Shown: in pieces, positions 5,045-62,631 of the stretch
How positions within the stretch are numbered: the stretch's first letter is position 1
Layout of the letters: the number at the start of each line of letters is the position of its first letter
Origin: Macrostomum lignano
Lineage: Eukaryota
Direction of reading: 5' to 3'
DNA: 64,000 nt
Assembly (NCBI GenBank): GCA_002269645.1
Contig: NIVC01000237.1
Location: 1-64,000 of the forward strand
Program-made: the position numbers and the translations under genes
Notes under the pieces: model-generated
What the model was told of the DNA's origin: nothing
The model's input: only the letters and a program-made list of their open reading frames with translations
Database searches by the model: none

Positions 5045-8000
5045 TCAAATATTGCTAGGTGGATTGTCCTTCTGGAAGATTTGCACGGAGGTCTCGCTCT
5101 TAAATCGCACGCGGTTTGAGCTGCGCGACCTTGTGTTAGCGGCGGGAGCGTCGCTTGGCGGGTCTGGTGTAGCTGCCGGCTGCTCTTGATGGGCTGTTGG
5201 CAGGGTGGCGGGCTTGACACGATCGATTGACACTACGGTAGGTTTGCTGTTGATCTGGAGTGTCATTGTGGTGTCGTGCCTGTCCAGCACCGCGTACGGG
5301 CCTTGGTAAGGAGCCTCCAGGGGTCGTCGCACACGGTCCAGCCGCAACCAGACGTGTGTGCACGGGCTCAGCGGGGCTGGCAGATGCACGGCTATCTCTC
5401 GCGTTCTCGGCTGCCGGTATGGGAAGAAAAGTTGAGTGTAGACTAGTCGAGAGCTCCTTGAGCGCAGAAGTGTCGGTGACGACCGTGGGACCAGCGGTTG
5501 CTCACCCGTAACAATGGAGAACGGAGAGGCACCTGACTCATCTGGGAAAATGCGCATGCCCAGGAGCACGACGGGCAGCTGCTGCAGCCAGTTCTTGCCG
5601 CGCGTTTTTAAACCGACCTTTAGCGTCCGGTGTGTACGTTCGATGATACCGTTAGCTCTCGGATTATAGGCTGAAGTGCGGATGTGGTGGATGCCGAGTA
5701 GGTCCGTCAAGTTCTTCATGAGCTCAGCTCGGAATTGGGATCCCTGGTCACTGATCAGCGTCAAAGGTGGGCCGAACCGAGAAATCCAGGTTTCCAGGAA
5801 GGCTTGTGCGACTGATGTGGCGGCAATGTTCGAAAGCAGTGCTGCTTCGAACCAGCGTGAGTAGGCATCGATCATGGTGAGTAGGTAGCGAGGCTTCGGG
5901 CCGGGATCTTCAGACACATGAGGCGGTAGCGGTCCAACTAGGTCAATGTGTACCGTAGTGAATCTCTGAGATGGCACAGGCAGCTGCTGCAGTGGGCGTT
6001 GAACATGTCGTCCAGTCTTGCACTGCTGGCATCGTTGGCACTCGGCTACCCACTTGCGAATGTCGGAACCAATTAGTGGCCAGAAGAACCGATAGCTAAT
6101 GAGCCGTTGCGTAGCTTTTCTGCCGGGGTGTGCAAACGAATGCAGCGAGTTGAACACCGCGCGTCGTAGTACTTCAGGAACTACGGGACGCGGGTTAGTC
6201 TGCGAAGTCTCACAGCGTAATGGGTAGTCTTTAATCCCGATTTCGAAGTTGCTGAACCGGCCTACTGGTTGATCGTTGGCGGGTAGACCGTCTTTCTGGG
6301 CTCGAGGGATAGCCGGCAAATCCACAGAGGGCGGGATGTCAGCTAGTAGCCTGACGGACGATGGTGGCTCCGCCTCGGAGGTGAGATTGGGACGAGATAG
6401 TGCATCGGCAACCACGTTGTTCTTATCGGCGATGTGAACGATGTCGCTGACAAACTCAGTGATCACGGATAGGTGGCGTTGCTGTCGGTCCGAAAAACGC
6501 TCCTTTCTGTTGCCGAAGGCTCCGATGATGGGCTTGTGGTCGCAGAACACAGTGGTTTGCTGGCCTTGAATCATGTTCTTCCAGGCCTTGACCGAGGAGT
6601 TCCCGATCGAAGGTGCTGTACGCAGTCTCGGTGTCGGATAGTTTCCGCGAGTAGAAAGCTAAGGGTGAAGACTGGCCGTCCACCACTTGATGTAGCGCAC
6701 CACCGATGGCGGTCGAGCTGGCGTCCGTTGTGATCGTAAACGTGGCCTGGGGATGAGGAAAAGCGAGCGTGACCGCTTCCGCGAGACTGTTCTGAAGCGC
6801 TTTCCAAGCGCGACCGTGGTGCTCCGTCCAGACGAATGTCGTTGAGGCGAGCTGCCGCAATGGTAGGACGATCTTTGCGTAGTCCGGGATGCACCAGTGG
6901 TAAAATCCGAACATCCCGAGGTAGCGCTGCAAGGCCTGGTGGTCAGTAGGAGGGGAAGCTGTCGGAAGGCCTCGACACGGTGGGGCAAGGGTCGAATGCC
7001 GTCCGCAGACACGAGATAGCCGAGAAACTCCACAGACTCGCGGAAGAACCGAAACTTGTCCGAATTGACTCCCAAACCTTTGTCGGTAAGTCGTTGCAGA
7101 ACTGTTTCAATGTGTACTTGGTGCTCTTCCTGAGACCTGCTGTGCACCAGGATGTCGTCGATGTAGGTAGTGACGAATGGTAGGTCCCGAAACACGGAGT
7201 CGACATATCGCTGAAACGTGCTAGCGGCGTTCCGGAGACCAAAAGACATCCGCAGGTATTCGAACGAGCCGAACGGGGTGCAAATCGCCGTCTTCTCGAT
7301 GTCCTCATCTGCCATCGGAACGAAGTGATAGGCCTTGACGAGGTCAAGGGTGCTTAAAACCTTTGCACCGTGCAGCTGATGATTGAAATGGTTGATGTTA
7401 GGGATAGGGTAGCGGTCTGGCTTGGTTGCCGCGTTTAAAGCTCGATAGTCTCCGCAAGGTCTCCAGGAACCGTCCTTTTTCTTCACCATGTGCAGCGGGG
7501 AAGCCCATGGACTGGCGGAGGGGCGGACGATGCCAAGGCGCAGGAGCTTGTCAAACTCCGCTTTTGCGACCGCGAACTTGGCAGGGGCAAGCGGTCGAGG
7601 TCGACAAAAAATGGGCTCGCCGGTGGTCTCAATACGATGCCGAACCGACGTGGCGGGTGCTGCGGTGTAGTCCGGAGCTTCCAGAACTCGAGGGAACCGA
7701 GCAAGCGGTGTGGTGGGCTCAAGCAACGTGGCGGCGATGATTTGAGGGACTGAATCACTAGACGAACAGAGAGTCGCACGCAAAGATGTCACAGGGTCTT
7801 GAATGCGCCGTGACTTCAGGTCGATGAGGAGACCAAACTTGAGGAAGAAGTCTGCACCGAGGATGGGCGCGGTACTGGTAACAATGAACGTCGCAGGATA
7901 TGGTCTACGAAGACCGGGGATAGCCAGTGTGACACAACATTGGCCGAAGGTTCGGATTTCACGGCCATCGACGCCGCAAAGCTTGACATGGGTGGGTGCG

Positions 8001-8143
8001 AGTAGATTTTGAGGAACAAACTGCAAAGGAAGAAGCGACCGTTCGGCGCCGGTGTCAACGATGAACGAAACGGGCGTACGGAGGACTTGGCAACGAAGAA
8101 GCAGTGTGGTGGCCTTTGATGGGTCGCGGCTCGGCCGAGGCAT
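5045..8143 (-). pseudogene. pol: Gypsy pol (protease, RT, RNase H, integrase), frameshifted
   Basis: FIVDTGA protease motif; [22 protein letters not shown] and YIDDILV RT motifs; [11 protein letters not shown] RNase H; HSFAHPG...CQRCQ zinc finger, VHIDLVGP, ISDQGSQF, NGIIERTHR integrase; split across 3 ORFs. Confidence 0.93.
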
Positions 8144-8151
8144 GGGACCAA

Positions 8152-10059
8152 CTAGTTTGACACCTGGCTTGGTGTCGGACTGGACACCCGGGACTGAGCC
8201 GGAGTGGGCTGGCGGCTAACAAGCAGTGTCGACGGTTTCGAGCCTGGCCACTGGCACCTGTAGAGATCTTCAAACACAGTAGCCTACTAAAAGTAGTAAT
8301 ATAAAGTTATGAATACAAATTTAAAAATAGCTATGTGTCATACTCTATTTTTAGTAATACAAGTAATATCACGCAAACAGCGAGTGGCAAATTTAAAAAT
8401 AGCTATGTGCCATGCTCTATTTTTAGCAATACCAGTCATATCACGCAAACAGCGAGTGGCTATGCTATTGTTCGAAAAACCGGTTCTCGACATCTATTTT
8501 TAGAACTTCCAAATATGGTAAATGTTAACCTGAATGTAACCCAAGTCTCACCCCTTTCTATTCAAAAACCCCACCTGTCAAATAATAAAATTCCTTTCGT
8601 GAACTCATCAAAAAAACCGGTTTTGAGCTCAAGGCCGACTCAAGGCCGACAAATTGTGTATAAATACAAACGCAAAATCCGAGCTGAAATCTCAGACTCG
8701 GAGCAGCCTCCAAAGAGGCTATATCTCTGAGGAAGAAATAAACACCAATTGGTAAGCTTTGTTCAAATCTTCGTTATTTTGATTATTGAGAGCGATTGTT
8801 ATTGCCGGCCGTTACTGTTCAGTTGATTTTATTGAGTCTATTGAGTTTGAGGCCTCCCTTTTCCTAAGGGATTGGATAGGATCTGCGGACCGATTCCGAT
8901 ACCCTTAGAGGATTATTGATTTGATTGATTTTGGTTATCCTAGATTAACCGATAGGAGCACACGACTCCGATTCCGTTAGTTCTAGAAGAAGACGCCCTT
9001 TCTGGAGGACCTCGTATTGCTATAGAAGTTGATTCTGTTACTAGGGCGCATCGTTGACATTGATTTCGGCACTCGAGAATATATTGAATTCTGCACTTGA
9101 AGAAATACTGCGACGTCGAGTTAATTGTTACGCTCTCACCTTCGGCCGACTCTAGACTTCAAGAAGACTACCCCGGGAGGAACAGCTCTACGGAGATGAG
9201 CTCTACAGACACGCGCGACAAAGAAGAGGAGCCCACAACAGTAAGTGATCACTGATTTTGTTCCCAGGCTTAAGTGTCTGGAAGTGGGAGTTTTCGGAAG
9301 ACTGATCACCTCCCGAATCAACTCTTCACACCATGGTCGGCACGTGCGAGCATCGGCGGCGTAGTAGAGATGACTGTTGCAGATCTTGGGCCGTCGGCGT
9401 GGGTTCCGGTTGGAGCGCGGGTCCTCAGGCTTCCTGCTACGAAAAGGACCAGCGTTGCTCCTCGGGTGCTCTTGGCCGGTGGCAGCGGCGCGGTTTACAG
9501 AGGCGAATGGGGTGGTGCAACCGGCGACCGCCAGCATGCTGTCGGCGATCTTCGCAAACGCGTCCAGCTCCGCCTGTTCGTGAACGACCAAGGCCGAACG
9601 GATGTGGGTGGGCAGGGCAGTTAGGAGTCGAGACTTGATGATGCTGTCATCGACTTGTAAACCTATTTCGCTGAAGCGCCGCTTGATGTCGGTTACCAAC
9701 TGAGATGGGCGGCGATCCCCGAGCTCCACAGCAGCGAGGGCCTCTTCGATTCGTTGGTGTCGGTTGGCGCGCAAAGCTTCTAGCACCGATGTTTTAAGCG
9801 AGGCGTAGTCCTCTGTGCCTAGGTCGATCGAGCAGGCAACGTCCTCAGGCAGGGCCGCTAACGTATGATGGAGCTTGGTCGCAGCGTGGGTGATTCCAGC
9901 TAAAGTGAACTGCGATTCCAGTTGCCGGAACCAGATCTCGGGCGACTTCCGGTAGAAGGCGGGAGGTTTTATAGCGATGCGTTGCACGAAGGCCTCTTGT
10001 ACTGGTTGCGCCAGGGCTCCAGCTTCGGGCGCTAACGGCTGCTGCTGTGTGTCCTCCAT
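8152..10059 (-). pseudogene. gag: Gypsy gag interrupted by a solo LTR
   Basis: IKPPAFYRKSPEIWFRQLESQF and CNSHLYYAADARTCRPWC; the frame resumes as QWPGSKP...SN* after removing 8259-9328 plus one TSD copy; pol lies in the -1 frame. Confidence 0.88.
8259..9328. mobile_element. Solo LTR (1070 bp) of a second LTR retrotransposon
   Basis: TGTAGAG...CTCTTCA termini; 4-bp TSD CACC (8255-8258, 9329-9332); internal TATAAA and AATAAA on the + strand. Confidence 0.85.
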
Positions 10060-10075
10060 ACCACACGCTCTGCTA

Positions 10076-10683
10076 TCGCTTTTGACGCTCTAGATAAGAC
10101 TTTAGACATTCAAAATAAGACTGCATAGGATCGCAAGCAAGGCCAGGCTAGCCACGGCCAGAGCAAGCCCAGTCTTGGCTGCAGCTAGGGATGGCTTGGC
10201 CATAGACTAAAAAATGGAATATCAAAATGAGAATAAGACGCTCAATATGAGACTGAGTGTGAAAGCCTTCAGATATCGCTCTAACCCTCTGACCCTCAGC
10301 CAGCTCTCCTTCTTCACCCCTTGGGTTGCATCTGACCCCTTGGATTTCACTGTGATGGCACCATCGATTCCTGCAGCAGTCCGCCAGGCTGACTTCAGTG
10401 ATGGACTAAACATTTCGATATGCTATTCTGCTTCTTGTTTATTGCCTAATTTCTCCTTAGCTGTTTGTATGGTGACTGCCAAAAAGCAAATAAATTACGT
10501 TCACTCCCGGTCTCATATTGAGCGTCTTATTCTCATTTTGATATTCCATTTTTTAGTCTATGGCCAAGCCATCCCTGCAGCCAAGACTGGGCATGCTCTG
10601 GCCGTGGCTAGCCTGTCCTTGCTTGCAATCCTATGCAGTCTTATTTTGAATGTCTAAAGTCTTATCTAGAGCGTCAAAAGCGA
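10076..10683. mobile_element. TA-target hairpin MITE inserted in the Gypsy primer-binding site
   Basis: Long inverted arms (TCGCTTTTGACGCTCTAGATAAG...); TA at 10074-10075 and 10684-10685; removing it restores TAGTAGCAGAGCGTG next to the 5' LTR, resembling a tRNAi-Met PBS (TGGTAGCAGAG). Confidence 0.8.
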
Positions 10684-11140: not shown

Positions 11141-12135
11141 AGTTGACTCCAAGTTGGCTGCCTGCTCTGCAGCTTATTAATTGGGCACTCGTTAGCGACC
11201 GCGAGCTGCGGAGCTGCGCAGAGGGGGCTGCGGTCGGGCGTGTCCTGCAAGCGGCAGCCGGCCAGGGAGTTCCATAGAGAGAATCTGGAGTGGCAGGCAG
11301 TTTGTTTTTAATTTGCTTTACCCAGCAAAAAATATTTGCCAATTCGCTCCCATTGAATAGGAATAAAGTTCCCTCAACTCACTCACACAAATATCGAATC
11401 GATTCAAGCCAAAGCCATGGAGTACTAAACTAGAACATTATTAGAACTCCATGTTGATATCTTTGAGTATCAGCTTTCCAGTTTCAGCCTCAGCTGCAAG
11501 CATTCATGTAAATTCGCCAGGATCTCATTAAGCACTCGTTAGCTGTCTAACAGTGCATGCCGCCGCAGAAAAAGCTTTTTCTTCCAAGAGTAATTTGGCT
11601 TCCCATTTGTTGGCTAATTCGCCCCCACCTGACAGAGCGTGAATGGTGTCAGTTTTCACGAACCAGATTTCTTCTCTGGTACTCCATGCGGTCGGCATTT
11701 ACGATCGCAAGAAATTGCTGAGCTGGTCTCACGCGCTACCAGCATGTCGCGGATATCCCGCTGGAGCGACTCCGCACCGCAGTGAACCCCCCCTCAAAGC
11801 AGCGACCCTTCTCATAGCAGCTCCCAGCAAAGCAAATGGCTGTTGCAGTGTCTTCACAATGCACCGAGAGCTTAGAGAAAACCGAGGTTATTGATCAAGC
11901 CAGCTCAGCCCCGTGTTGCTTCGGCATACTCAGCAATATGATTATGCAGTGGTGGCCAGTAGAGTCGCCACCATCGATTCAAAGGCGAGCGGCGCCACCC
12001 GCCACCCCACGATCTGCGCTCCACCGCAGCAGCAAAGTGAGTTGAATTCCCTCATGATTTGCTTGCAGCTGGCTCTGGTGGAAACACTGGCGTGAACTGA
12101 GCCCTGCAGGGGTAGCTCTCCCTGTCCCTTATGTG

Positions 12136-12142
12136 TATATAA
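12136..12142 (+). promoter_or_regulatory. TATA box of peptide gene copy B (conserved in all four copies)
   Basis: TATATAA starting 100 nt upstream of the ATG at 12236. Confidence 0.6.
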
Positions 12143-12235
12143 TTGTTGTTAATATTTGCAACTCGGCAAATTACTTTCTGCTCAAGCTATACACCACACT
12201 TAGCAAGCCAAAGAAACTCAAACCCAAAAGCAGTC

Positions 12236-12477
12236 ATGCTGAACTACAAGCAAGTGCAAGCCTTTGTGGCCGCGATGCTCGTCCTGGCTATGACAGGTAA
12301 GAGAGACATCGATCAGTAGTTTAGTGAGAATTTGGTAACTCATCGATTTGTCACTCATTATGGACTCTGAAAACATTTGCGTCCTTTTCAGCTGCCGCCA
12401 TCGAGGTGCCGGCCGACGAAGCCGGAGATGAGGCCGACTACGCTAGGCGCAGATACCGCAGGTGCAGCGTCCTGTAA
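12236..12477 (+). CDS. Small secreted prepropeptide, copy B (48 aa; exons 12236-12296 and 12392-12477)
   Basis: Same two-exon structure as copy A; intron 12297-12391; only the phase-1 join gives a start-to-stop CDS; hydrophobic N-terminus, acidic middle, Arg-rich C-terminus. Confidence 0.78.
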
Positions 12478-12657
12478 GCCGGAGGCGCCAATCAGCCCAG
12501 CGATGTGCAGGCCAGTGAGGCCCGGCTCACTGACAGCTCTGACAGATCTTAATCGCTGCGGCAAAGCTTATTCTCGCTTTACTCTCTGGGTTGCAGGGAA
12601 TGGTGAAGGCGCTGCTTGCTCTGTACATGTGGATTGTGGCTGCTGGCTTGGTGGGGA

Positions 12658-12663
12658 AATAAA
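12658..12663 (+). terminator. Polyadenylation signal of copy B
   Basis: AATAAA ~180 nt after the stop; conserved in all copies. Confidence 0.55.
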
Positions 12664-13508
12664 CTGAAGAAGCAGACAACTCAGGCACTCGATGCCTGAT
12701 TCGGGAGTTCCGCTACCATCTTTTGGCAAATTAGTTTGTTATGGGTTGTCAGTTCTATCCTGATCGAGGGTGCAAGTACGAAATGATCCGCGAGCTTGGC
12801 GAGTGCAGTGAAAGTTTTTATCAAAATTCACATCACATTGAACATCCACATTTACGAGCTGTTTCAAGCAGAAGCCATGGAGTACTAAATTAGCTTTTAA
12901 ATAGAACTCCATGCTTAAGTCTTTGAAGTTCCAGATTTAATTAAAGGTTTCAGCCTCAGCTTCAGCCATGCATGTAAATTCGCGAGGATCTCATTAAGCA
13001 CTCGTTAGCTGTCTAACAGTGCATGCCGCCGCAGAAAAAGCTTTTTCTTCCAAGAGTAATTTGGCTTCCCATTTGGCTAATTTGCCCCCACCTGACAGAG
13101 CGTGAATGGTGTCAGTTTTCACGAACCAGATTTCTTCTCTGGTACTCCATGCGGTCGGCATTTACGATTGCAAGAAATTGCTGAGCTGGTCTCACGCGCT
13201 ACCAGCATGTCACGGATCGGATATCCCACGGCCACGGACCCGCCCGGCAACAAACCACCTCACTTTGAACTCTGCACCGGAACGCACCAACCCCTTCCCC
13301 CCTCGACAGCAGCGACCCTGTACCTGGTACATTGATCTGCACATCAACAGGGCCTGCTTTGCCAAGGAGACCGCAAATAGAACCTGGAGATAACTCTTCG
13401 CCACTCACCCGTGCTTAACTCAGGTGTTTTTTCGGTCGCCTTCACGTTAAGGAGCCCTATTTGGTGCAACCGAATTCCGACGAAGCCACCGAGAGTTTCA
13501 ACCTCCTG

Positions 13509-15146
13509 CTTGCACTCTCGATCAGGATAGAACTGACAACCCATAACAAACTTTTTTGCCAAAAGATGGTAGCGGAACTCCCGAATCAGGCATCGAGTGC
13601 CTGAATTGTCTGCTTCTTCAGTTTATTTCCCCACCAAGCCAGCAGCCACAATCCGCATGTACAGAGCAAGCAGCGCCTTCACCATTCCCTGCAACCCAGA
13701 GAGTAAAGCGAGAATAAGCTTTGCCGCAGCGATTAAGATCTGTCAGAGCTGTCAGTGAGCCGGGCCTCACTGGCCTGCACATCGCTGGGCTGATTGGCGC
13801 CTCCGGCTTACAGGACGCTGCACCTGCGGTATCTGCGCCTAGCGTAGTCGGCCTCATCTCCGGCTTCGTCGGCCGGCACCTCGATGGCGGCAGCTGAAAA
13901 GGACGCAAATGTTTTCAGAGTCCATAATGAGTGACAAATCGATGAGTTACCAAATTCTCACTAAACTACTGATCGATGTCTCTCTTACCTGTCATAGCCA
14001 GGACGAGCATCGCGGCCACAAAGGCTTGCACTTGCTTGTAGTTCAGCATGACTGCTTTTGGGTTTGAGTTTCTTTGGCTTGCTAAGTGTGGTGTATAGCT
14101 TGAGCAGAAAGTAATTTGCCGAGTTGCAAATATTAACAACAATTATATACACATAAGGGACAGGGAGAGCTACCCCTGCAGGGCTCAGTTCACGCCAGTG
14201 TTTCCACCAGAGCCAGCTGCAAGCAAATCATGAGGGAATTCAACTCACTTTGCTGCTGCGGTGGAGCGCAGATCGTGGGGTGGCGGGTGGCGCCGCTCGC
14301 CTTTGAATCGATGGTGGCGACTCTACTGGCCACCACTGCATAATCATATTGCTGAGTATGCCGAAGCAACACGGGGCTGAGCTGGCTTGATCAATAACCT
14401 CGGTTTTCTCTAAGCTCTCGGGTGCATTGTGAAGACACTGCAACAGCCATTTGCTTTGCTGGGAGCTGCTATGAGAAGGGTCGCTGCTTTGAGGGGGGGG
14501 TTCACTGCGGTGCGGAGTCGCTCCAGCGGGATATCCGCGACATGCTGGTAGCGCGTGAGACCAGCTCAGCAATTTCTTGCGATCGTAAATGCCGACCGCA
14601 TGGAGTACCAGAGAAGAAATCTGGTTCGTGAAAACTGACACCATTCACGCTCTGTCAGGTGGGGGCAAATTAGCCAACAAATGGGAAGCCAAATTACTCT
14701 TGGAAGAAAAAGCTTTTTCTGCGGCGGCATGCACTGTTAGACAGCTAACGAGTGCTTAATGAGATCCTGGCGAATTTACATGAATGCTTGCAGCTGAGGC
14801 TGAAACTGGAAAGCTGATACTCAAAGATATCAACATGGAGTTCTAATAATGTTCTAGTTTAGTACTCCATGGCTTTGGCTTGAATCGATTCGATATTTGT
14901 GTGAGTGAGTTGAGGGAACTTTATTCCTATTCAATGGGAGCGAATTGGCAAATATTTTTTGCTGGGTAAAGCAAATTAAAAACAAACTGCCTGCCACTCC
15001 AGATTCTCTCTATGGAACTCCCTGGCCGGCTGCCGCTTGCAGGACACGCCCGACCGCAGCCCCCTCTGCGCAGCTCCGCAGCTCGCGGTCGCTAACGAGT
15101 GCCCAATTAATAAGCTGCAGAGCAGGCAGCCAACTTGGAGTCAACT
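13509..15146 (-). repeat. Segmental duplication arm C
   Basis: Inverted copy of 11141-12778, separated from it by a ~730-bp spacer. Confidence 0.9.
13808..14049 (-). CDS. Small secreted prepropeptide, copy C (48 aa; exons 13989-14049 and 13808-13893)
   Basis: Identical CDS and intron to copies A and B. Confidence 0.75.
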
Positions 15147-17322
15147 TGGATTGCTTTCATGACCCAGATCATATCAAGCATTGGAATCAATCGTACGAAA
15201 AGACAAAACTGTTTTTAATTTTTGCATAGAATTGAATAAATTTTTCTCTCTCGGTTGGACTTTCGATGACGCCCTTGGATCTTTGAAAAACTGCTTTCAG
15301 GAAAGAAGACTGTACCTGTATGCCTATTTATTACCGAAATTACACATGCGGTTTTTCTTACAAATCACTGTCTAAGAATAACTGCTAGGGCGAGTTGATG
15401 CGGAATTGTGTGTTCTCAAGACAAAGAACTTTTGCCCAAACTCTTGGCAGGTTTTGACCATTGCCAACAATGTGCACTCACAAACAAACTCAAGCCATTG
15501 GTCCTTTTATATTTAATTTCTAAATGACACACAAAAGATTGGAGTGGGCTGAGATGCACAGTGAGTGAGGGAGTGAGTTACTGTAAACTTTGTCGAGCAG
15601 TAGAAAGTTGACTGCTCTACAGCTCATTAACTGGGCATTCGTTAGCGACCTGCGTGTCCTGCAAGAGGCGGCCGGCCAGGGAGTTCTATAGAGAGAATCT
15701 GGAGTGGTAGGCTCAGCCCATACGCAGCTTTTATAAATTTAGTGCTTTAAACAGCCAAGGAAACTTCGCCAGCTCACTCCTATTGAATACTAATAAAGTC
15801 ACCTAAACTCACAGAAATATCGAATTCATTTGAAGCCAAAGCCATGCAGTATTAAACTAGCATTTAAATTAGAACTCCATGTATTTGGACTTTCCTGCAG
15901 CTTTGCAGTTTCAGCTACAGCTGCTGTCATACATGCGCCCTGTGAAGGTACAAATGTAGCTGCTGTGAAGTACATGAATATAATTTCGAGAAAGCTATTC
16001 CAAGTTTAATTTATGATTTGTGTCAACTAAGCCTCTAGAAGCCTCTAGCATACACAACTACTTAACGCGTGTAAAGTGGTCGATTTTCAGGCATATTTGA
16101 CGCAAAAAACGCAAATTATACTACTATCTGAAAAATTAAGTAAGTAGTATATGAAAACGCTATCCTAAGCGTGATATATGTACACATAGCATACTTCTAT
16201 ATGTACTTGCATATGTACATTAACCCCCATCTATTCCCAATCCTATATGTACATTGTCTACTTCTATGTCTACATGTACATTAATCCCTATCTAATTTCC
16301 CCAATGTACCTCTATATGTACACTGCATACTGTACTTGCATTTTAAACCCATATCTACTTCTAGGACAATTTCTATATGTACAGTGTCTACTTCTATATA
16401 TGTACATTAATTCCCAATCTACACGACAGTCCCCAGCTGTATTTGAAACCCTCTATACAACAGCAGCCAGTTATGTACATTCTCTCTCTCTCTCTTCGAG
16501 TAAACGAAAATTTCCTACTCGAAACACCTGTATACAGTGTATATTGCAGAGGTGGGGTGCGCTCGCCGGCTGTACAATCCGTTGCATGCGTCATCCCCCA
16601 GCCCTCAAGAATGAAAGGCTTCAATGATATGGTTCGGTACAAACGGCCGAATTATTTACAAACAGCATTGTAAAGAGAAAGGAATATATATTTACAAAAT
16701 CGATAAAATCAGTAGCATATTACAAAAAAGCTTATGCACAACATTACCAGCCAATAGAATATACAGAAAATTTTACATTGTTTTTCAATAATCTCCTTTT
16801 GATAAATGATTTTAAGCAAGTCTGACACGCAAAATATGTACAATTGATTTTTACATTGGCAATTTCACCGCATACAAGGCAAAAATGTTTTATGTACCTT
16901 TGATGTATAGTTGGTTTCTCTTCATAAAATATTTTTTATGTAAATTTGACATGTAAAATATGTACAACAAATAGATTTCACTCTGACAAATATACCGCAC
17001 ACAATACAAAATGTTTTGATGTCCATTTATAGTCAGTTTATAACCACAAGGGCCAGCATTATTTATAGCCATAAGGCCGGCTGCGCACAACCCCGCCGCC
17101 GTACAGTCGTTTAGTCAGCACGCAGGGACTACTCAAACATCGGGACGGGAAACTAGGCAAATCATGGTGAAGGTATTACGAGGCTGGTTTGTTAGCAGCT
17201 GACGAGGCTGGCTGGCTTATTTGTATTGAGCGATACTTTGTTGTCTATGGTTATTTTCTATTATTTGAAGCTTGTGATACCGTTATTTCGACTGCAGTCC
17301 AGCAGGGGATGCTGGCATTATA

Positions 17323-18236
17323 ACGGGTGTCCCAAAAAAAGGGTAACACTTTGTGCGCTCACTGTGAGTGAGCAGTTAGGCCTAGCACAGTAATTTAACA
17401 GGTCTGTAAATACTGCGATAGTGAAGGCGGCAGTGTGAGCGCGAAACGAAAGGCTTAAGGCCCCATATGGCCGTGGGCCCAATATAAATATATTTGTTAG
17501 GCGACAGTGAACGATGCGTACATTCATGAACATGTACATTGCTACGCTATTGATGCTATTGATTAGGACAGAGCGGGCGAGAGAGAGAGAGCGCTGGCAA
17601 CAGGCACCGCCCTGCTAGGCTAATTCAACTAGGTGGCAATAACAAGGTCCACAGTAAACATTTGTAAGTTTTTCCCACAAACATTTGGTTGCGAAAAATT
17701 GCTCCAGAGGCGAGTTATTGAGCACAGAAGTGTACGCTAGCTTTTCTGCCAAGCTTTGCCATACACAGCTGTCATAGACAATCTTAACGTTTAAGAAATT
17801 TAAGAAATTTTAACGTTACATCAGTCTCAGAGTCTATGCATGCTCTGTCATTTTTCTTACGCAAAAGATTGTCTATGGCCTCCATCTATGGCAAAGCTTA
17901 GCAGAGAAGCTAGCGTACACTTACAAGCTCAAAAAATCAATAACGATTTTTCAAATAAACTGCTATTTGACCACACACCGTCTCAGAGTCTATGCTCCTT
18001 AAGATTTTTTAAAGCAAAAGATTGTCTATGGCAGCTGTGTATGACAAAGCTTGGCAGAAAAGCTAGCGTACACTTCTGTGCTCAATAACTCGCCTCTGGA
18101 GCAATTTTTCGTAACCAAATGTTTGTGGGAAAAACTTACAAATATTTACTGTGGACCTGTTAAATTACTGTGCTATAGGCCTAACTGCTCACTCACAGTG
18201 AGCGCACAAAGTGTTACCTTTTTTTGGGACACCCGT
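17323..18236. mobile_element. Tc1/mariner-like MITE
   Basis: TIR ACGGGTGTCCCAAAAAAA, TA on both sides; the arms extend ~230 bp once the nested LTR is removed. Confidence 0.8.
17405..17644. mobile_element. Solo LTR (240 bp) nested in the MITE left arm
   Basis: TGT...ACA termini; 5-bp TSD AGGTC (17400-17404, 17645-17649), a length typical of BEL/Pao or Copia. Confidence 0.75.
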
Positions 18237-18422
18237 TATTATAGCAGCTAAGTTTCTGGCAGAGGAGTAGGACAAGCCCGATTTTTCTGCTTGGCATCAA
18301 TGCCAAGAAAGTGCAGCGTTGTTGGCTGCAAGTTATTTATGAGTCCGAACGATTAGCTATACAAAACTCGGTTGAGCGAGAGCGATGGAAAAAGGCCCTA
18401 CCGAACATCCTGGAGGTAGGCG

Positions 18423-21230
18423 CTATTTGAGTATCCCTGTCAGCACGCGCTGAAACGTCTTGTCCATACTGGTCGTATGGATGGTACAAGACGTCTTGTC
18501 GCGCCTGAACTGAAACTGCGACAGCTGCAGAGAGCCGCCGTGCAGCAGGGCGCTGCGCAGGTCCTCACTGCGCTCCCAAACCTCTGGCGTCAGGCGAATG
18601 CCCTTGCATTTCAGGAACTGGCTCCGGGCACCGGCCGCATCCTCGACAATGTAAGTGTAGAGCTTGGGCCCTCCACTTACAAAGTCGGTCATTTGGCTGC
18701 CTGCGGGCACCTCGTCGGTCCACATTCCGAGGCTCGTGCCATCGGCCGGCTCCCATTGGCCCTCGGAATGGCGGTAAACGACCCTGTGTGTGTGTGGGTG
18801 GGCAATTAGTCAGGTACTAAATCTTATTTACATGTATATACGTAATCAATTCTAAAAGAATCTATCCAGCCAATACTTACGAGTCGGTGTCGCAATAAAT
18901 GGCCCGTTCGCCGAGACCCTCCAAGGCCTCGTACAGGCAGGCGCAGCCGGGCCTGCGTGGTCGTAAGGACCCCGATTGGTACGTTGGAGTAGCGGAACGG
19001 CCGCTGATTAAAGTAGCGGTGCCGGTACTCCAGCAGCATAAACTCACTGCCAATCGGCTCGCAGGCCTTGACCTGGAGTTTCGGATCGGTCAGCCGGGCG
19101 AGCCAGTCCTCGTAGCTGGAAACAATCTCAGGTCATCGCGCTGACAGAATTTACCCCAGAGCCTGTGAAAATATTGGATTTGTGCTGCTACTGTTAGTAG
19201 AAGAAAAATTTTAAAAAGCAGAATTATGATTACTTTCGAATTCAAAAAGATTTTCGCCACAAAGCGAAGTCTTGGGTTGGACTCGACCCCGTCCAGCTTG
19301 ACGCCTTCCTTGGCGTAAAAATCGGCAATGTAGGCAGCCCGCTCATCGTCAGTCATGCCGGGGGAGCCGCTCGACTCGGCCTTCAGCTTGAGAAAGGTGT
19401 TGACATATTCGCTGAACAGGCCGGTCCTCTGCTCTGTCCAGTAGGCTAGCGCGTGTCCGGCTTGCAGACGGTAGCCCAACTGGAAGGCCTTCCGCAGCTC
19501 CAGCGTTGCCCAGGTACCCGTCAGCGCCCGCTCCTGGTCTGATTGGCTGCAGCACTCGCGGCTGCACTGCTCCTGCTGCTGCTCCATACAGGTGCGGCAA
19601 AGCCCAAAAATGAGCTTCTTCTGCACCCTGTATGGCAACAGCGGAATGTGCAGATCTGACGGCGGCAGCACTGTTACTTCGGCAATGCCAAAGTAGCTGG
19701 CCAGCGCGTCAGAGTCGAGTGTCTGCGGCGTCGGGTGGTGCACCGGGTGGCCAATCGGGTATGCGTCTTTTGATTGTACCGTCGGGTACAGAGAGACCTG
19801 CCAGTTTAAATAAAACATTATTTTTCATAAACTGTATTTCATATTTTGCAAAATATTCTACTACATTAGTAGTATCACTACTCACCACATCCCGATATTT
19901 GAGCGCCTCAGTCTCACTGGCCATAGCATGCGGGATGAAGCATTCTACTCGACCGCCGTAGAGCGCATCCTCCATCTTGAGCGGTGCACGCAGATGAGCA
20001 GTTGCGGCGATAAAATCAGCCTGCGATGCCAATACAGTGTCATATTCATGCTCCCAAATGACACGAACACTGTAATTATGCCGCTCCAACTCGCGAGTGA
20101 ACCGCTCAGTCTCGTGGCGGATGTGGCTCAGAGGCTGCCGCTTTAGTGGGTGGACAACATCCTGGTCGGGCATACACTGCTCGCAGTCATGGTAGAAACA
20201 GCCATGAAACTGCAAAACAATGTTTGTAGCCTCATCGAAGCCTTTCACCTTGCGGCCGAGAATGACAGCCTGAACAAATGGTTCAAGCCCATCGCAAATG
20301 TCTGCAATTATCGCCCTGTACTTGAGCTACACAGCCCTCGCGAAGCAGGACTGTGTCGCTCAAACAATAATCGAGATATTCCCGATTAAGGTTGAACAAC
20401 TCGCCCTGTCGCGAGGCCAACCATGCACAGATGGAGTCGTATTCCTTGTTGGCCTTGCCGCCGTAGTAATCAATAGCCGGGTAGGGGCCCACGTAGTTCC
20501 AATCGGCCGGCTTGTTGAACTCGTGGGGAAAGGTCCCCTTGGCCAGCTTTGTTGCAAGGCCCAGCGCTTTGGGAATTGTGCAAGCAGGATTGGCATAAAG
20601 TTGAGCGAGTTTTTAAAAACCAACTTGTCAACCGTCATGCACATTAGCCGGCTGCCTTGAAACACCACTTGTGGCCGCTTCTTGGCCAGGCCGTTGAGTA
20701 GAGCGCCGAGCAGCAAAATAGCATCGTAGTCAGATGCATTGTGAGCCGCAACTATGGCGCCGCCTCGGAATGTTGTGCTCAGCCAGGCGAAAAAATGCAT
20801 TCAGCGGGCTCGAGCCCACTGCCACAAAGTCGGCCATTTGGCAGGCACAGTCTGAGTGGGTGACGCAATTGGAGAAATTCTCCCCCAAATCGACATTGAC
20901 GGTCAGCAACATGTTGTCAGCAGTCAGTTTAGCCGCGACAAAATCATCGGCGTGCAGGTCCGCGCAGAGCACAGAAATTATTTCATCAAACGTAGCTCGA
21001 ATATCGACCATATCTGCTGTGAACGATACTGCATACTTGTAGTCTTTTGCCTTAAATTTAGGCAGGGCCTTTGCCCCGCCAAGGCGCGCAATGAAGCCTG
21101 AAAAATTGGAGTGCTTGAAATTAGAATTGCAAGCGGCGGCGGCGGGTGAATGACTCATGAAATAAAATCAACTCCTTACCATTGCCTTCGACAGTGTCGG
21201 GCTGGGGCGGGGGTGGAAATTTAGCCAAAT
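18423..21230 (-). pseudogene. Protein-primed family B DNA polymerase (Polinton type), intron-containing, decayed
   Basis: AAHNASDYDAIL and FKNSLNFMPILL exonuclease motifs; YCLSDTVLL; FHGCFYHDC/VIWEHE VSR-like insert; ALYGGRVE; KYRDV|VSLYP; KIFLNS|LWGKF; ARLRLYEALEGLGERAIYCDTDS|VVY; FVSGGPKLY; KCKGI. Introns 21098-21179, 19798-19885, 19163-19237, 18784-18880; frameshifts and deletions present. Confidence 0.9.
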
Positions 21231-22470
21231 CTGCAATTAAAATGTGCATGGTGACTAAAATTCTGACCGATGGAGGGCAATTGTCTCAGTCGCCGCCTGA
21301 CATCTTTCAGCGGCCGGGTCTGAGCACCGCGTGGCTTTGTGTAGGTCCGTGGCAATGGTGACCTCTTCTGGGAAGGGGGTCCACGGAGGCAGGGGTGCCG
21401 GTAGTTCTTGTGGAGTCAGCTGTCCGACTGCAAGGTTGGTCAGCCACTGGCCGATCCTCTGGAAGCACGGTTTGAAAGAAAGAGCCAGGACGTCTTCGTC
21501 AACGGGGTCCGCTTCCGGATCGGTTTCACTCTTGAGGAGAGCTTCATGAGCCCTGCAGCGGAGGCGGGCTTGACTTGTCGCTCCAGAAGCCGGCGGGCGG
21601 GGTCCCCGGTCGGGAGGAGGCTCAGCCTGGTGTATTCTCTAGCAGCCTGATCCAGCGCTCTGAGGAATAGGGCAGGTAGGCCAGCCTCCGCAAGCAGGGT
21701 CCGCCTGTTAGTGATGCCAAGGCAGCCCGTGATAATGCGGGCGCATTTGTTCTGTTCGGCTTCCAGCTTGTAGCGGTTCGTGGGGGCCGCGTGGGTGAAA
21801 TAGATCGAGGAGCCATAGTCCAAGATGGAGCGGATGTAGGCGGTGTAGGCGGTTCGGAGGGTAGTTCTATCAGCTCCGAAGTGTTTGCCTGCGATGGCCA
21901 GCAAGCAGTTGCGTCGATTAGCCATCCTAGTTTTGACCAAATCGACGTGTCTGGAGAAAGTCAACTGGTCATCGAACTTGAAGCCCAAGAAGGTGGATTC
22001 AGCTTCGTAACGCAGGGGCTCATTTTCGATGCAGAACCCCTGGCGCACTTTGCCGCCACATTCCGCGGGATTGAGAGTGAATGTGGTGAAGCTGCACTTG
22101 TGAGTGCTCAATTGGACTTTCCAGCGTTTAGTCCAACAAACAATGGCGTCGAGGGCCGGCTGGGCGCAATCCGTGCACTCTTGCAGGCTACGGCCAGTGT
22201 CAGTATTGCCGTGTCATCCGCGAAGAGAGATCGATGCACCCTATCGTCGAGGCCGTCGTCGATGTCGTTAACGTAGATCAGCCAGAGGAGGGGTGCGAGA
22301 ACTGATCCTTGAGGGAGGCCGTCCGTAAAGACTCTCCAGTTGGAGCAGATGCCGTCCCAGCGGACTCTGGCGCGGCGATCAGAGAGGAGGTTCTTGACGA
22401 AGCGGATGACATGGGCCGGGATGCCGAGTCTGGCCATTTTATCATACAAGCCGGGTCGCCAGATTCGGTC

Positions 22471-22840
22471 GTTTTATTTTTTTATTAGAGGCAGGGGGGT
22501 TGTGTGCACCCTGGCGCACTTTAAGCGACATAGGCACACAACCGGCGAGAGGCATTACTACCCATTCCGCCGACTCCCCTGAGCAGGCATACAAGCGCGC
22601 GGATACGTACGCAGGCACACAAGCACACAGGAGTGTACAGCGGCCCTAACTTTATATTATCGTTAGGCATGTGCACTTCACTGCGCCTTGGGGGGTTGGC
22701 TCTCAAGGCCGTTAATTGCACGAGCAGAGCCAAGCCGAGATTCCAATTCAGCCCCAAATTAATGTGACTGCACTTGGAATCGAGCCTGGGTCGCTGGCAC
22801 ACCAGAGCAGCTGCGCTATCGCTGGGCTACGGCCCCCCTT
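22471..22840 (-). mobile_element. tRNA-derived SINE (family 1) inserted in the LINE RT
   Basis: A box TAGCCCAGCGATAG, B box GGCTCGATTCC, A-rich tail, 10-bp TSD AGATTCGGTC; homologous to 62632-62998. Confidence 0.9.
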
Positions 22841-25128
22841 AGATTCGGTCCTAGGCCTTGGCAAAGTCCAGGAGGATCAGGATAGCGCGCTCAGACTTGC
22901 CTTGCTCGAGGGCGTCAAAGATGGCCTGGGTGATACGGGCCAGTTAGTCGATCGTTGAGTGGCCTTTGCGGAAACCGGCCTGGTTTTTGTTAAACAGGTT
23001 GCGCGATTCAAGCCAGTGGAAAAGGCGGTTCTGGAGGATGAGCTCGGCCAATTTGGCAATGCAGCTGAGAAGCAAAATGGGCCTGAAGAGTCAGTCTGCC
23101 CAGGGTCTTTCCCTTTCTTATGGATAGCGATGATTTCGGCACGCCTCCAAGCGGCAAGCATGGTGCGGTTTAACCAGCAGTCGTTGAGGAGTTCGAGGAG
23201 GCGGCTTTTTCCACGAGGGGAGGCTTGACGAAGGAGTTCATTGCTCGGGGCTTTCCCGTTTTTGAGCTGCTTGGTGGCCAGCTCCGGTTCGGTGTTGGTG
23301 ATCGGGCTACAGATGTCGGAGCGGGTGCCGTCGCAGGTGCAGTTCAAGACTGCGCGGCGCGCCTCTTGGATGATGGGGCGGTCCTCAGCCTTATTTTTTC
23401 CAATTCTGGAGACCTCGGCATAGGCTCTGCAGAAGAGCTCCGCTTTCGCTCGGGCTGTGGCCGCGAGTGGATTCGATGGATAAATGTTGCCGCTGGCCGG
23501 ACGTTCGAAGGCTGCGGCCGGCTTAGAGCTGGGTATGCGCCCATCGAAGCGTTTGATCAGCCTCCACATATCACCATCCGGCTCAGCGCACTGAGCGCGC
23601 TGAGCCGCTCGCGGAAATCAAGCTTCTTTTCCTCCTGGATGACACGGGCGGCCTCTTGTTTTAGGTCGGAGTACCGGCGGATGCTTTCAGGGTCATCGGA
23701 GCTCTCGATCAGGGAGAGGCGACTTTCTTCCCGACGGTCCGCAGCTTTCTGGCAGCGTTCATTCCAGAAGGGCTGTCGCTTTCTGGGGCCGCTGCCGAAG
23801 GGGATGGCCTAGCGGGCCGCACCGGTGAGGGCGCTGGTGATCAGTTGATTATGGCGATCGGCGGAACAGCACGCCGAATTCAGTAGGTTTTTGATTCTAG
23901 CCAGCCTGGAGTCAAGGTCAACCCGGAAGGCCTGCCAGTCAGCTTTTTGAAGTTGAACCGGCTGGGAGATTTCGGCTTCACAGGGTCGTTGGCGTCGAGA
24001 TTTACCAGCATCGGCAGGTGGTCAGAGCCGATACCCTCAAGGGTGCACCAGTCGGCGCGGCTGGCCAGGTCGGCTGTGACGATGCATAGGTCAGGAGCTG
24101 ATTTCCCCCCTGTAGCCGGATTAAGGTGGGTGTGGCCTCCGTCGATGAGTATCGACAGGCAGCAGTTAGTAGTCCACTCTTCAATCGCAGTACCTAGCTG
24201 GTCCTCCCTCTGGAAAGGGTCCCAGCAGGTGGCATGCGCGTTAAGGTCTCCTGCGATAAGCGTGCGAGGGCCGAGGATGAACCCATCTGGGTTGAAGGTG
24301 GCCTCGATGTCCTCACGGGTGCTGCGGCGAGCCGGTGGAACATAGGTGTTTATGACTCGGATTGGTTTAGCGCCCGCGAGAAAGATTTGGGTGCCATGGC
24401 AGTAGCAAGTGTGATCGTTAGGTTGCCTATGGGCCGACTGTAGTCTTTTGAATGCGGTGTCATCTCTAACCAGGGTGAGGATCCCGCCTTGGTTTGCTTC
24501 AGCGGGGCCGTTCGTCTCGTCCGGGCAGCAGTCGTTTCGTCCGCTGATGTTGTAGCCGGCAAAGGAGGGGCCGTAGATTTAGGGCGGAGGAAAGTCTCTT
24601 GGAGCATAACGACGTGGGGGGCGCTTGTCGGCGATGATTTTGGCGAGTTCTGTGGCGCGTTTCTTGAGGCCGTTGCAGTTTAGGATAAGGGCAATCACCG
24701 GGGGTTTGCGCCTTCGGGTCCGCACTTCCGGCTCCGGGGGCGGATCCATTAGGGCGGGCGTACCGGTGTTAGCCTGGGAGCGCTACCGTCTTTGGCGGCC
24801 GTGCTGGAGGCCGTGCCGCTCGTTTGAAAATGTTTCACGTCGTGGCACGCCGTGCGGAGCCTTTCGGCAGGTCTGTAGCCGCCAGATTGTCGTGGCGAAT
24901 TTAGCACCGGCGTACTGGTAGGTGTCGGTTTGGCTGGCGGCGGCGCATTGTCAGTCTTGTTTCGGCAGGGTTGGCATTCCCAAGGGGTGCCAGAGACAGA
25001 AAAGTGGCGAAGTGCTTTAGGCTGATGTCAGTGCACCTTCTGTGGTTCCAGGTGCGGCACCTCGCACATTGTATCGAACAGTCGGCTCCATAGCCGAAGT
25101 TCTTTCTACAGGCTCCACAAGGGAACCT

Positions 25129-25167
25129 GGGTCCCGGGTTGGCTTCGATGTCGCCAGCAAGGAGCAG
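25129..25167 (-). other. 2A-like ribosomal skipping (StopGo) motif LLLAGDIEANPG|P
   Basis: Matches the D[V/I]ExNPGP consensus, directly before the PHD finger. Confidence 0.85.
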
Positions 25168-25304
25168 AAATGTAGTAAACCAGCTCAGGAGGTGCGACCA
25201 TGTTCTTCGGTTCTTGGGCATCGACGACAGTCTTCTGGGGACGCGCAACCTCCCTTCGCGACCGGTTTGACAGGTCACGGTCAGTTGCGCAGTGAAAGTG
25301 AGAC

Positions 25305-46122: not shown

Positions 46123-61544
<15,422 letters not shown>

Positions 61545-62631
61545 TGTGCTTGCAGGAATCAGTGAGATTTGAACTGTAGCTCAGATCAACTGAAATGAGT
61601 GGTAAAGTTATGCTGTAAGCAGGAAGCTGTTTTTTTTTAACAGAATTTTTCATTACTAGCATATCTTTTTCAGACATTGTGCTATACAGAACAGATGTTC
61701 ATGGTGAATAATTATTGTTTCCTAAGGCAATTACAATCAAAATTAAGCAAAGTATACTATAGAAAAAAATTGTTGTGCCATTTTTGTACAATGCCATTTA
61801 ATAACCATTTGCCATTTCCAATTTTCACATGTCATAGCAAAACTATAATACAAAAATTGAAGCTCTGACAGCAAAATAATATGAAATTAGATGTGGGACA
61901 TGTTATATAATCACAATGAAGATTTAGCCATAATTGTAAACTATAACTGTTCAATCCATCTTGAATTTTCTATTGGCAACTATTTTGTATATGTATCTCT
62001 GATGATTGTTAGGATTTACTATAAACATAGGTAAACAATCATAGCCTATAATGGGAACTATTAATTCAAAAGGACTTATGATCTAACTTGATAATTAAGA
62101 GATATAAACTATACAATGGTTAATAAAGTTGAGTTACTTATACCTTATATATGCGCAATCTGAAATTATACCAGCTATATAATTTAGTTTTGACTTGAAA
62201 AAATTCCACTTAGTTTAAAGACCAAGTAAGACCTCAAACAAAATAAAGTTTCAATTTATAGTAGCTTTTTTGTCAAAAAGGCAAAAAATCTTAAATAGCA
62301 GTTGCTTAATATGTATTATAATATAATAGGAAATACTATCTCCTAGAAGACTTTAGTTAATTAACTAAGAGAAGAAATTACAAAGAAAACTATGCAGGTT
62401 TTAAAGGCCTAATATATCTGTACTATAGTCTAGATAATTATAGGCGTAGACAAATATAAAAAATTCTAGTTTTTTATTCTACTTGAAAATAATTACACTG
62501 AAAACAAGGTTGCTTATATGCCAACTTAAATAATACATAGATTATTGCATCCTTTGATTTTGGACAAACATTGCCATCTACTAGCAAGCTATAATGCCTT
62601 TTATATCATATATATTTTAAAAAGCAAATAA

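Follow-up and report, generated by a model that had tools for sequence, protein, structure and literature searches.

A protein-primed DNA polymerase (pPolB) gene with six spliceosomal introns was found in Macrostomum lignano, on an element of about 9 kb that we consider to be probably derived from a Polinton, likely to replicate itself from its ACTAC ends and likely to be inserted by an integrase borrowed from Polintons. The introns are old, family-wide and spliceosomal. Polintons are defined by the polymerase together with an integrase, and are described as intronless; the lineage reported here, which is young and multi-copy, separates the replication half of Polinton transposition from the integration half, and it makes testable both a protein-capped linear intermediate and the way in which Polintons lost their virion genes and turned into plasmid-like replicons.

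The polymerase gene of the window and its product

The DNA analyzed is a stretch of 64,000 nucleotides (contig NIVC01000237.1, positions 1 to 64,000 of the forward strand), hereafter the window, which holds one copy of the element (Table 1). As an earlier note made from the sequence alone had claimed, introns A, B and C interrupt the polymerase motifs of the same letter on the minus strand, and they are AT-rich, the exons beside them having a GC content of 0.56-0.61; the unusual donor of intron B is real, and is common only to the window copy and its three closest copies. The fourth AT-rich intron of that note is probably intron 2, which has the expected ends and is less AT-rich. Four introns are not the total for the gene, given that full-length copies have six, three of them outside the polymerase motifs. 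The end of the gene had been placed at position 18423, where the stop codon is spurious and lies inside an insertion that we take to be hAT-like from its ends and the size of its duplication; the true last codons and stop are found beyond it. The window copy is dead, as had been noticed, with deletions, frameshifts and two insertions; a deletion of about 1.2 kb at position 20892 took the remainder of exon 3 together with intron 3 and the beginning of exon 4.

Table 1. Features of the element copy in the window (window positions) and two reading frames of a family-2 copy (positions in L064).
Feature	Position	Strand	Remarks
Whole element, family 1 copy	16057-27380	-	ends 5'-ACTAC...GTAGT-3'
6-bp target duplication TACACA	16051-16056 and 27381-27386		flanks the element
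Terminal inverted repeat, downstream of polymerase gene	16057-16517	.	90% alike to other end over 490 nt
pPolB last codons and stop	17059-17122	-	separated from exon 7 by insertion
hAT-like non-coding insertion	17123-18439	.	CAGGG ends; 8-bp duplication TCAGCACG
Nested TA-flanked MITE	17323-18236		inside hAT-like insertion
pPolB exon 7, main part	18440-18783	-	after motif C
Intron C	18784-18880	-	motif C (YxDTDS); phase 2; 97 nt; GC 0.35
pPolB exon 6	18881-19162	-	frameshifted in window copy
Intron B	19163-19237	-	motif B (KxxxNSxWG); phase 2; 75 nt; GC 0.28; donor GAAAGT, non-canonical in window copy
pPolB exon 5	19238-19797	-
Intron A	19798-19885	-	motif A (DxxSLYP); phase 0; 88 nt; GC 0.25
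Exon 4 remnant	19886-20891	-	exonuclease and VSR regions; 180-nt deletion near 20270 and frameshifts
Exon 3 remnant	20892-21097	-	terminal-protein domain
Intron 2	21098-21179	-	82 nt; GT-AG; GC 0.43
Mini-exon 2	21180-21230	-	intron 1 acceptor just before
LINE-like insertion	21270-25378	-	stands in the place of exon 1 and most of intron 1; PF14529 at 23883-24578; RT-like motifs
Upstream part of element	25379-26894	.	TATA-like site; region in which copies share no conserved reading frame
Terminal inverted repeat, upstream of polymerase gene	26895-27380	.
PC4-like ORF, family 2	L064:1978-3057	-	faces away from polymerase
Acidic ORF, family 2	L064:3180-3636	-	faces away from polymerase

The identification of the gene product as a pPolB was borne out: the protein is a Polinton-type pPolB that matches Pfam PF03175 above the cut-off, with motifs A, B and C present. 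From its sequence, it is predicted to have about 1,300 aa and to comprise terminal-protein, vOTU protease, exonuclease, VSR and polymerase domains. The fold model of the N-terminal exon is confident (pLDDT 90) and matches Y-family little-finger domains with Z values of 5-6.7, below Z 8; a little-finger fold has been reported for terminal proteins (PMC11071308), and with these modest Z values the exon may have a terminal-protein-like fold. A Foldseek search against viral models gave no match below E 0.001. The vOTU cysteine is invariant in 75 alignment rows and the histidine column is nearly invariant in 11; the exonuclease and polymerase motifs are whole, and no match to a superfamily 1 helicase was found. 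The pPolB phylogeny, suggested as a check by the earlier note, places the polymerase among the VSR-containing animal Polinton polymerases, at 35-40% identity, and the nearest proteins are three environmental ones; in viral contigs, no locus was found that would give the gene context of these outside relatives.

Introns in two families and in guessed RNA contigs

A DNA search of the same genome with the window polymerase gave 41 matches, the best 30 of which were fetched for intron comparison; some of these family-1 copies are near-duplicates, so that 30 overstates their independence. Introns A, B and C are present at the same sites in all 30, and in 22 of them all three have GT-AG ends; taken singly, GT donors were found in 30 (A), 25 (B) and 28 (C) copies, and AG acceptors in 29, 30 and 30, respectively. 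The exon flanks are fixed and the intron lengths vary (A, 81-88; B, 69-78; C, 74-97 nt). Intron positions are thus shared by the members of the family, GT-AG ends are conserved, and no intact paralogue without the segments was found among them. The less damaged copies have a seven-exon gene with a short basic exon 1, an intron 1 of 1.0-1.2 kb, a mini-exon and five short introns.

A sister family (family 2) was revealed by a Pfam polymerase search of the genome, in which 91 of 974 candidates were scored. Its polymerase shows 68% protein identity to that of family 1, and its introns occupy the same six positions and phases. By flank patterns, introns 2, 3, A, B and C were recognized in 18, 16, 18, 20 and 19 of 20 family-2 copies, all of them GT-AG, and intron 1 is present in 11/11 family-2 and 5/6 family-1 copies. 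Between the families, introns at the same position cannot be aligned with one another (z -1.6 to 1.0). The introns have pyrimidine tracts and GT-AG ends, and a branch-like YTRAY motif is present in 8 of the 10 that were scanned. Given that the six sites are shared, that the intron interiors are unalignable, and that the synonymous sites of the two families have diverged almost to saturation (dS ~1.7), the introns must be older than both families.

These data bear on the idea that the segments are copy-specific insertions or recent introner transposons, or that the gene has been domesticated as a host gene and multiplied through segmental duplication. Introners have been described in dinoflagellate Polinton-like elements (10.1101/2025.03.18.643946), which likewise carry spliceosomal introns, and some of the copies studied here are near-duplicates or clustered. 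Nevertheless, two families as far apart as 68% in protein use the same six sites; no intron is like another or like its counterpart in the other family (no convincing introner-like repeat similarity was found among 10 introns of the two families, and the largest z among 45 pairs, 3.4, was between low-complexity tracts); and each resolved copy has its own target duplication. According to the available part of that report the dinoflagellate introners are mostly young, repeated, post-integration insertions, in contrast to the six unrelated introns described here, which predate the split of the families. We regard this idea as largely refuted and hardly credible.

Motifs A, B and C, which make up about 2% of the gene, each contain one intron, and together hold three of the six; the chance of such clustering is on the order of 1 in several thousand by a rough, post-hoc binomial estimate. 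Our preferred guess is that motif introns were kept where an imprecise loss is lethal. Two other readings were tried and discarded. Intron A could be taken for coding sequence, since it has 81 nt and is open in several copies, but its length ranges from 81 to 88 nt, motif A is interrupted by it, and contigs of guessed RNA runs skip it. An intronless polymerase in contig G000:C234 (L093:7200-9440) lacks introns A, B and C, but it is only about 38% identical and is not a sister in the tree. It is a single, decayed, AT-rich pPolB of the VSR type, which we read as a separate incursion.

Evidence of splicing came from contigs of four public runs, which were aligned to the sister copy L051:900-9250 (85% likeness). 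The RNA nature of the runs is a guess of the tool, and no run holding the window stretch is recorded as RNA. Introns C and A are skipped exactly in the guessed RNA runs X1 and X2 (study P1) and X5 (study P2), and intron B in X2 and X5. The skipped stretches measure 79, 75 and 81 nt and, read on the plus strand, have CT..AC ends; each run contributes a single contig per joint, the shorter side of which has 24-74 letters. No intron-skipping joints were found in the control run X13, which has the highest coverage and whose kind is unrecorded. For intron 2 a junction is weakly indicated, and by run X1 alone; the joints listed include none for introns 1 and 3. The junction check therefore supports exact removal of introns A, B and C in guessed RNA contigs of two studies. 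Since the spliceosomal introns are family-wide, expression needs nuclear splicing, which agrees with the claim of the earlier note that they are long-resident in a lineage dependent on it. Database proteins 91-100% identical to family 2 are from M. lignano itself, where the gene is spliced in part by existing automatic models, which carry no comment on the element. Apart from the gene, a 71-nt skip at L051:8137-8209, in an upstream region of family 1 that appears to be non-coding, occurs in three guessed RNA runs and is absent from the control run; it may stem from a non-coding RNA that is spliced.

Purifying selection acts on the exons, and the polymerase was working during the spread of the element: within family 1 exons 5-7 have a dN/dS of 0.11, against 0.05 within family 2 and 0.15 between the families, calculated from copies with open exons only (14 per family; 17 of 196 between-family pairs). 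These exons are open and have GT-AG sites in 13 of 30 family-1 copies and in 14 of the 18 family-2 copies that were parsed. With introns and a selected polymerase in both families, the introns have been carried through many rounds of spread.

Ends, gene content and non-coding derivatives of the element

The less damaged family-1 copies measure about 9.5 kb and the family-2 elements 8.8-10 kb, and the terminal repeats of the latter are mostly 98-100% alike. ACTAC ends with a 6-bp duplication were identified in 15 of 19 polymerase-bearing copies, the other four being unresolved or without duplication. About 100 polymerase matches occur in the genome; when a stretch of polymerase from this clade served as query, all 149 candidates were scored, and the ten unassigned ones all belong to family 1 or 2. 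Integrase, ATPase and capsid were found in none of the full-length copies by Pfam or by tblastn with resident integrases, two tests that did detect the integrase in full-size Polintons of the same genome. Pfam detection of capsids is weak, so the absence of a virion module rests partly on the gene content, the polymerase gene leaving little space for one. The idea that the 3 kb upstream in family 1 conceal genes was considered and rejected, because no frame is conserved between copies and no Pfam match was obtained.

Family 2 has two further ORFs. The PC4-like ORF has a homologue in the PC4-like ORF of a resident Polinton (30% over 101 aa, E 2e-8); its atlas matches to PC4 score 0.85-0.86, which is a lead only, and its single-sequence fold has a pLDDT of 36. 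The acidic ORF, which apparently has an intron of its own near the 3' end, was examined as a candidate integrase and discarded: its only homologues are from the same species, it has neither a Pfam domain nor an atlas match, and it is absent from family 1; one automatic UniRef name mentions a DDE domain, without Pfam support. At the very ends of family 2, bases 8-27 differ between copies (39% versus 2% further in; L063-L074), and are identical at both ends of the same copy in 7 of 10 copies, an identity that under our preferred explanation would be a signature of replication; resident AGTAG elements seem to have a similar variable end block.

The family-2 end pattern gave 99 matches in the genome against 0 for the reversed control, and 27 of 33 paired ends span 8.3-9.8 kb. 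Twenty loci with these ends, mostly without a polymerase match, were fetched in search of a coding partner; 19 of them have 6-bp duplications, and neither Pfam nor tblastn revealed an integrase, ATPase or capsid of their own at any of the 20. The candidates turned out to be non-coding palindromes on inspection: 13 are palindromes over their whole length, with arms 98.4-99.5% alike and a conserved central hairpin, and the remaining loci include three long-armed forms with a short spacer, two nested ones and two derivatives of about 1.2 kb. A young palindrome family (L173-L190; e.g. L185:202-9024) is 99-100% alike in at least 20 loci and measures 8.7-9.4 kb; it has the ACTACT ends of family 2, 6-bp duplications, a branched central hairpin of about 80 nt and no Pfam match. 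The unique flanks with duplications argue against an assembly artefact. These palindromes look like snap-back defective genomes, and as palindromic deletion forms they fit a linear DNA that is protein-primed and replicated by strand displacement; for the kalilo plasmid, the title of a paper reportedly names a similar form. Nesting was also seen: one palindromic element lies inside a Polinton integrase gene (L190, G000:C1944), a Polinton lies inside a palindromic element (L166/L167, G000:C106), and further cases are L067 and L179.

The resident Polintons, of about 16-17.5 kb, have a single-ORF pPolB of 990-1480 codons, an rve integrase and an A32-type ATPase. Their polymerases are intronless and fall on distant branches, and the identity to the family-1/2 polymerase is only 17-22%, so the element did not arise by deletion from any helper sampled. 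Among 13 larger elements, nine have 5'-AGTAGT ends with a 6-bp duplication and none has ACTAC, which is the reverse complement of the motif of ordinary resident Polintons. The genome shows 115 integrase matches, from a search that scored 114 of 2318 candidates. At least three canonical lineages with intronless pPolB are present (L075-L092, L115-L125, L154-L171), several of them internally deleted; one carries a dUTPase, and another has an F5/8 domain and a weak PLA2-like match beside the integrase.

Because non-coding elements carry ACTAC ends and duplications, these ends are integrated by enzymes that act in trans; this is shown for the non-coding derivatives and is very likely for the polymerase-bearing copies. 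Judging from sequence, the helper is likely to be the integrase of a resident full-size Polinton. The weak point of this explanation is that the ends of the presumed helpers (AGTAGT) differ, and that their recognition of ACTAC ends is only presumed.

In the mechanism that we favor, the gene would be transcribed and spliced in the nucleus, where removal of introns A, B and C is seen in guessed RNA, that of intron 2 weakly, and that of introns 1 and 3 would follow from the sequence. The product, with recognizable terminal-protein, vOTU, exonuclease, VSR and polymerase motifs, would be an active protein. It would replicate an extrachromosomal linear copy by protein-primed strand displacement, in the way suggested for the free linear copy of Polintons (PMC8097293, PMC11071308), and this copy would then be integrated by what is presumably a borrowed enzyme, the 6-bp duplication being its visible footprint.

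A different source of the integrase has to be weighed. The introns would be equally real if a cognate ACTAC-ended element that escaped detection, or an exogenous virus, supplied the integrase and perhaps a capsid in a bipartite or satellite-virus system. The ends are unlike those of every resolved resident Polinton; families 1 and 2 and the palindromes, with unrelated contents, converge on 8.3-9.8 kb, as a packaging limit would cause; and with the integrase and Pfam polymerase searches scored for part of their candidates, an autonomous partner could be missed, an intron-split integrase being hard to see in the former. Yet the 20 loci with family-2 ends hold no integrase, ATPase or capsid of their own, and the clade polymerase search, scored for every candidate, brought up nothing outside the two families. 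We consider such a partner unlikely.

It is more doubtful still that the element is a passive, non-autonomous transposon with the polymerase as cargo, replicated and integrated by resident Polinton proteins or by an LTR/Ginger-type integrase. Palindromes and derivatives of about 1 kb do spread without any gene, and integrases of LTR retrotransposons exist in the genome, one of them within the window; but for a cargo gene, neither purifying selection within both families, nor intact terminal-protein and vOTU motifs, nor splice sites that were kept while the intron interiors turned over would be expected, and this account seems improbable to us.

Comparison with Polintons and linear plasmids

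The element resembles animal Polintons/Mavericks (adintovirus-like) in its 35-40% identical protein with the same domains, in its terminal inverted repeats, 6-bp duplication and trinucleotide end repeat, and in the PC4-like ORF of family 2. It differs from them in that integrase, ATPase, protease and capsid were not detected. Intact vertebrate Mavericks of 12.7-24.6 kb are reported as intronless in the available text of PMC8097293, in contrast to the six introns within about 9 kb of the present element, and their end motifs are given there as (AGT)2, (AG)3 and (AC)3A, compared with ACTAC(T) here. The definition of a Polinton includes its own retrovirus-like (rve) integrase (PMC5499653); the element is Polinton-like in replication, and departs from Polintons in integrase, virion modules and the AG-type end motif. 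The earlier note was therefore right to point to a Polinton/adintovirus-like lineage for the polymerase, but the carrier is not a complete Polinton or adintovirus, being of smaller size, with those modules not found and the end motif reversed. Introns are not special to this lineage, nor is the loss of the capsid needed for their gain, since a complete Maverick in the metagenome contig OBLZ010000281.1 has a GT-AG intron of about 120 nt (L172:6817-6936) in the VSR FYG/CxxHGC motif of its pPolB.

Non-autonomous deletion derivatives of Polintons keep the ends and sequence of the parent and move with enzymes supplied in trans. Such derivatives are present in this genome; the element has instead its own ends, a selected polymerase lineage and non-coding satellites.

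Yeast cytoplasmic linear plasmids of the pGKL type and transpovirons are also Polinton-derived linear DNAs with terminal repeats, a replication protein of the TP-vOTU kind and no virion genes, and transpovirons, of about 7 kb, can integrate (PMC11071308, PMC5499653). In contrast to these cytoplasmic or giant-virus-associated molecules, the element resides in animal chromosomes with integrase-type footprints and needs nuclear splicing, and while transpovirons have a helicase fused to an inactivated polymerase, it keeps the whole polymerase. Compared with a free linear plasmid, it is known here from integrated copies, for which the palindromic derivatives give indirect support for free linear DNA. 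It is tempting, though tentative, to see in it a linear replicon of animals that depends on nuclear splicing, a polymerase-only satellite that parasitizes the integrases and perhaps the capsids of Polintons and is itself parasitized by the 9-kb snap-back palindromes. If this were true, transpovirons and yeast linear plasmids would have in this replicon a nuclear counterpart in animals, and it would be invisible to screens based on long ORFs or on a linked integrase. In the accessible part of a large survey, only pPolB genes linked to an integrase were kept (10.1101/2023.08.22.554363), and by this filter a spliced polymerase-only lineage would be missed. Our literature searches brought up no description of Polintons in Macrostomum, of ends reading ACTACT, or of an intron-split Polinton derivative with the polymerase only; Repbase, supplements, most subscription papers, and Kapitonov and Jurka 2006 could hold such families.

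Other features were observed in the window. Positions 5045-10089 on the minus strand hold the gag-like, protease/RT and integrase ORFs of an LTR retrotransposon. Inverted repeats of 500-900 nt with 99-100% identity at 11141-15146, 1227-2682 and 28462-29092 probably represent a young foldback/MITE family. Exons of a host gene with KY-like immunoglobulin domains (PF23265) lie at 46637-48384 and 60669-61580, amid long repeat arrays of tetranucleotide type.
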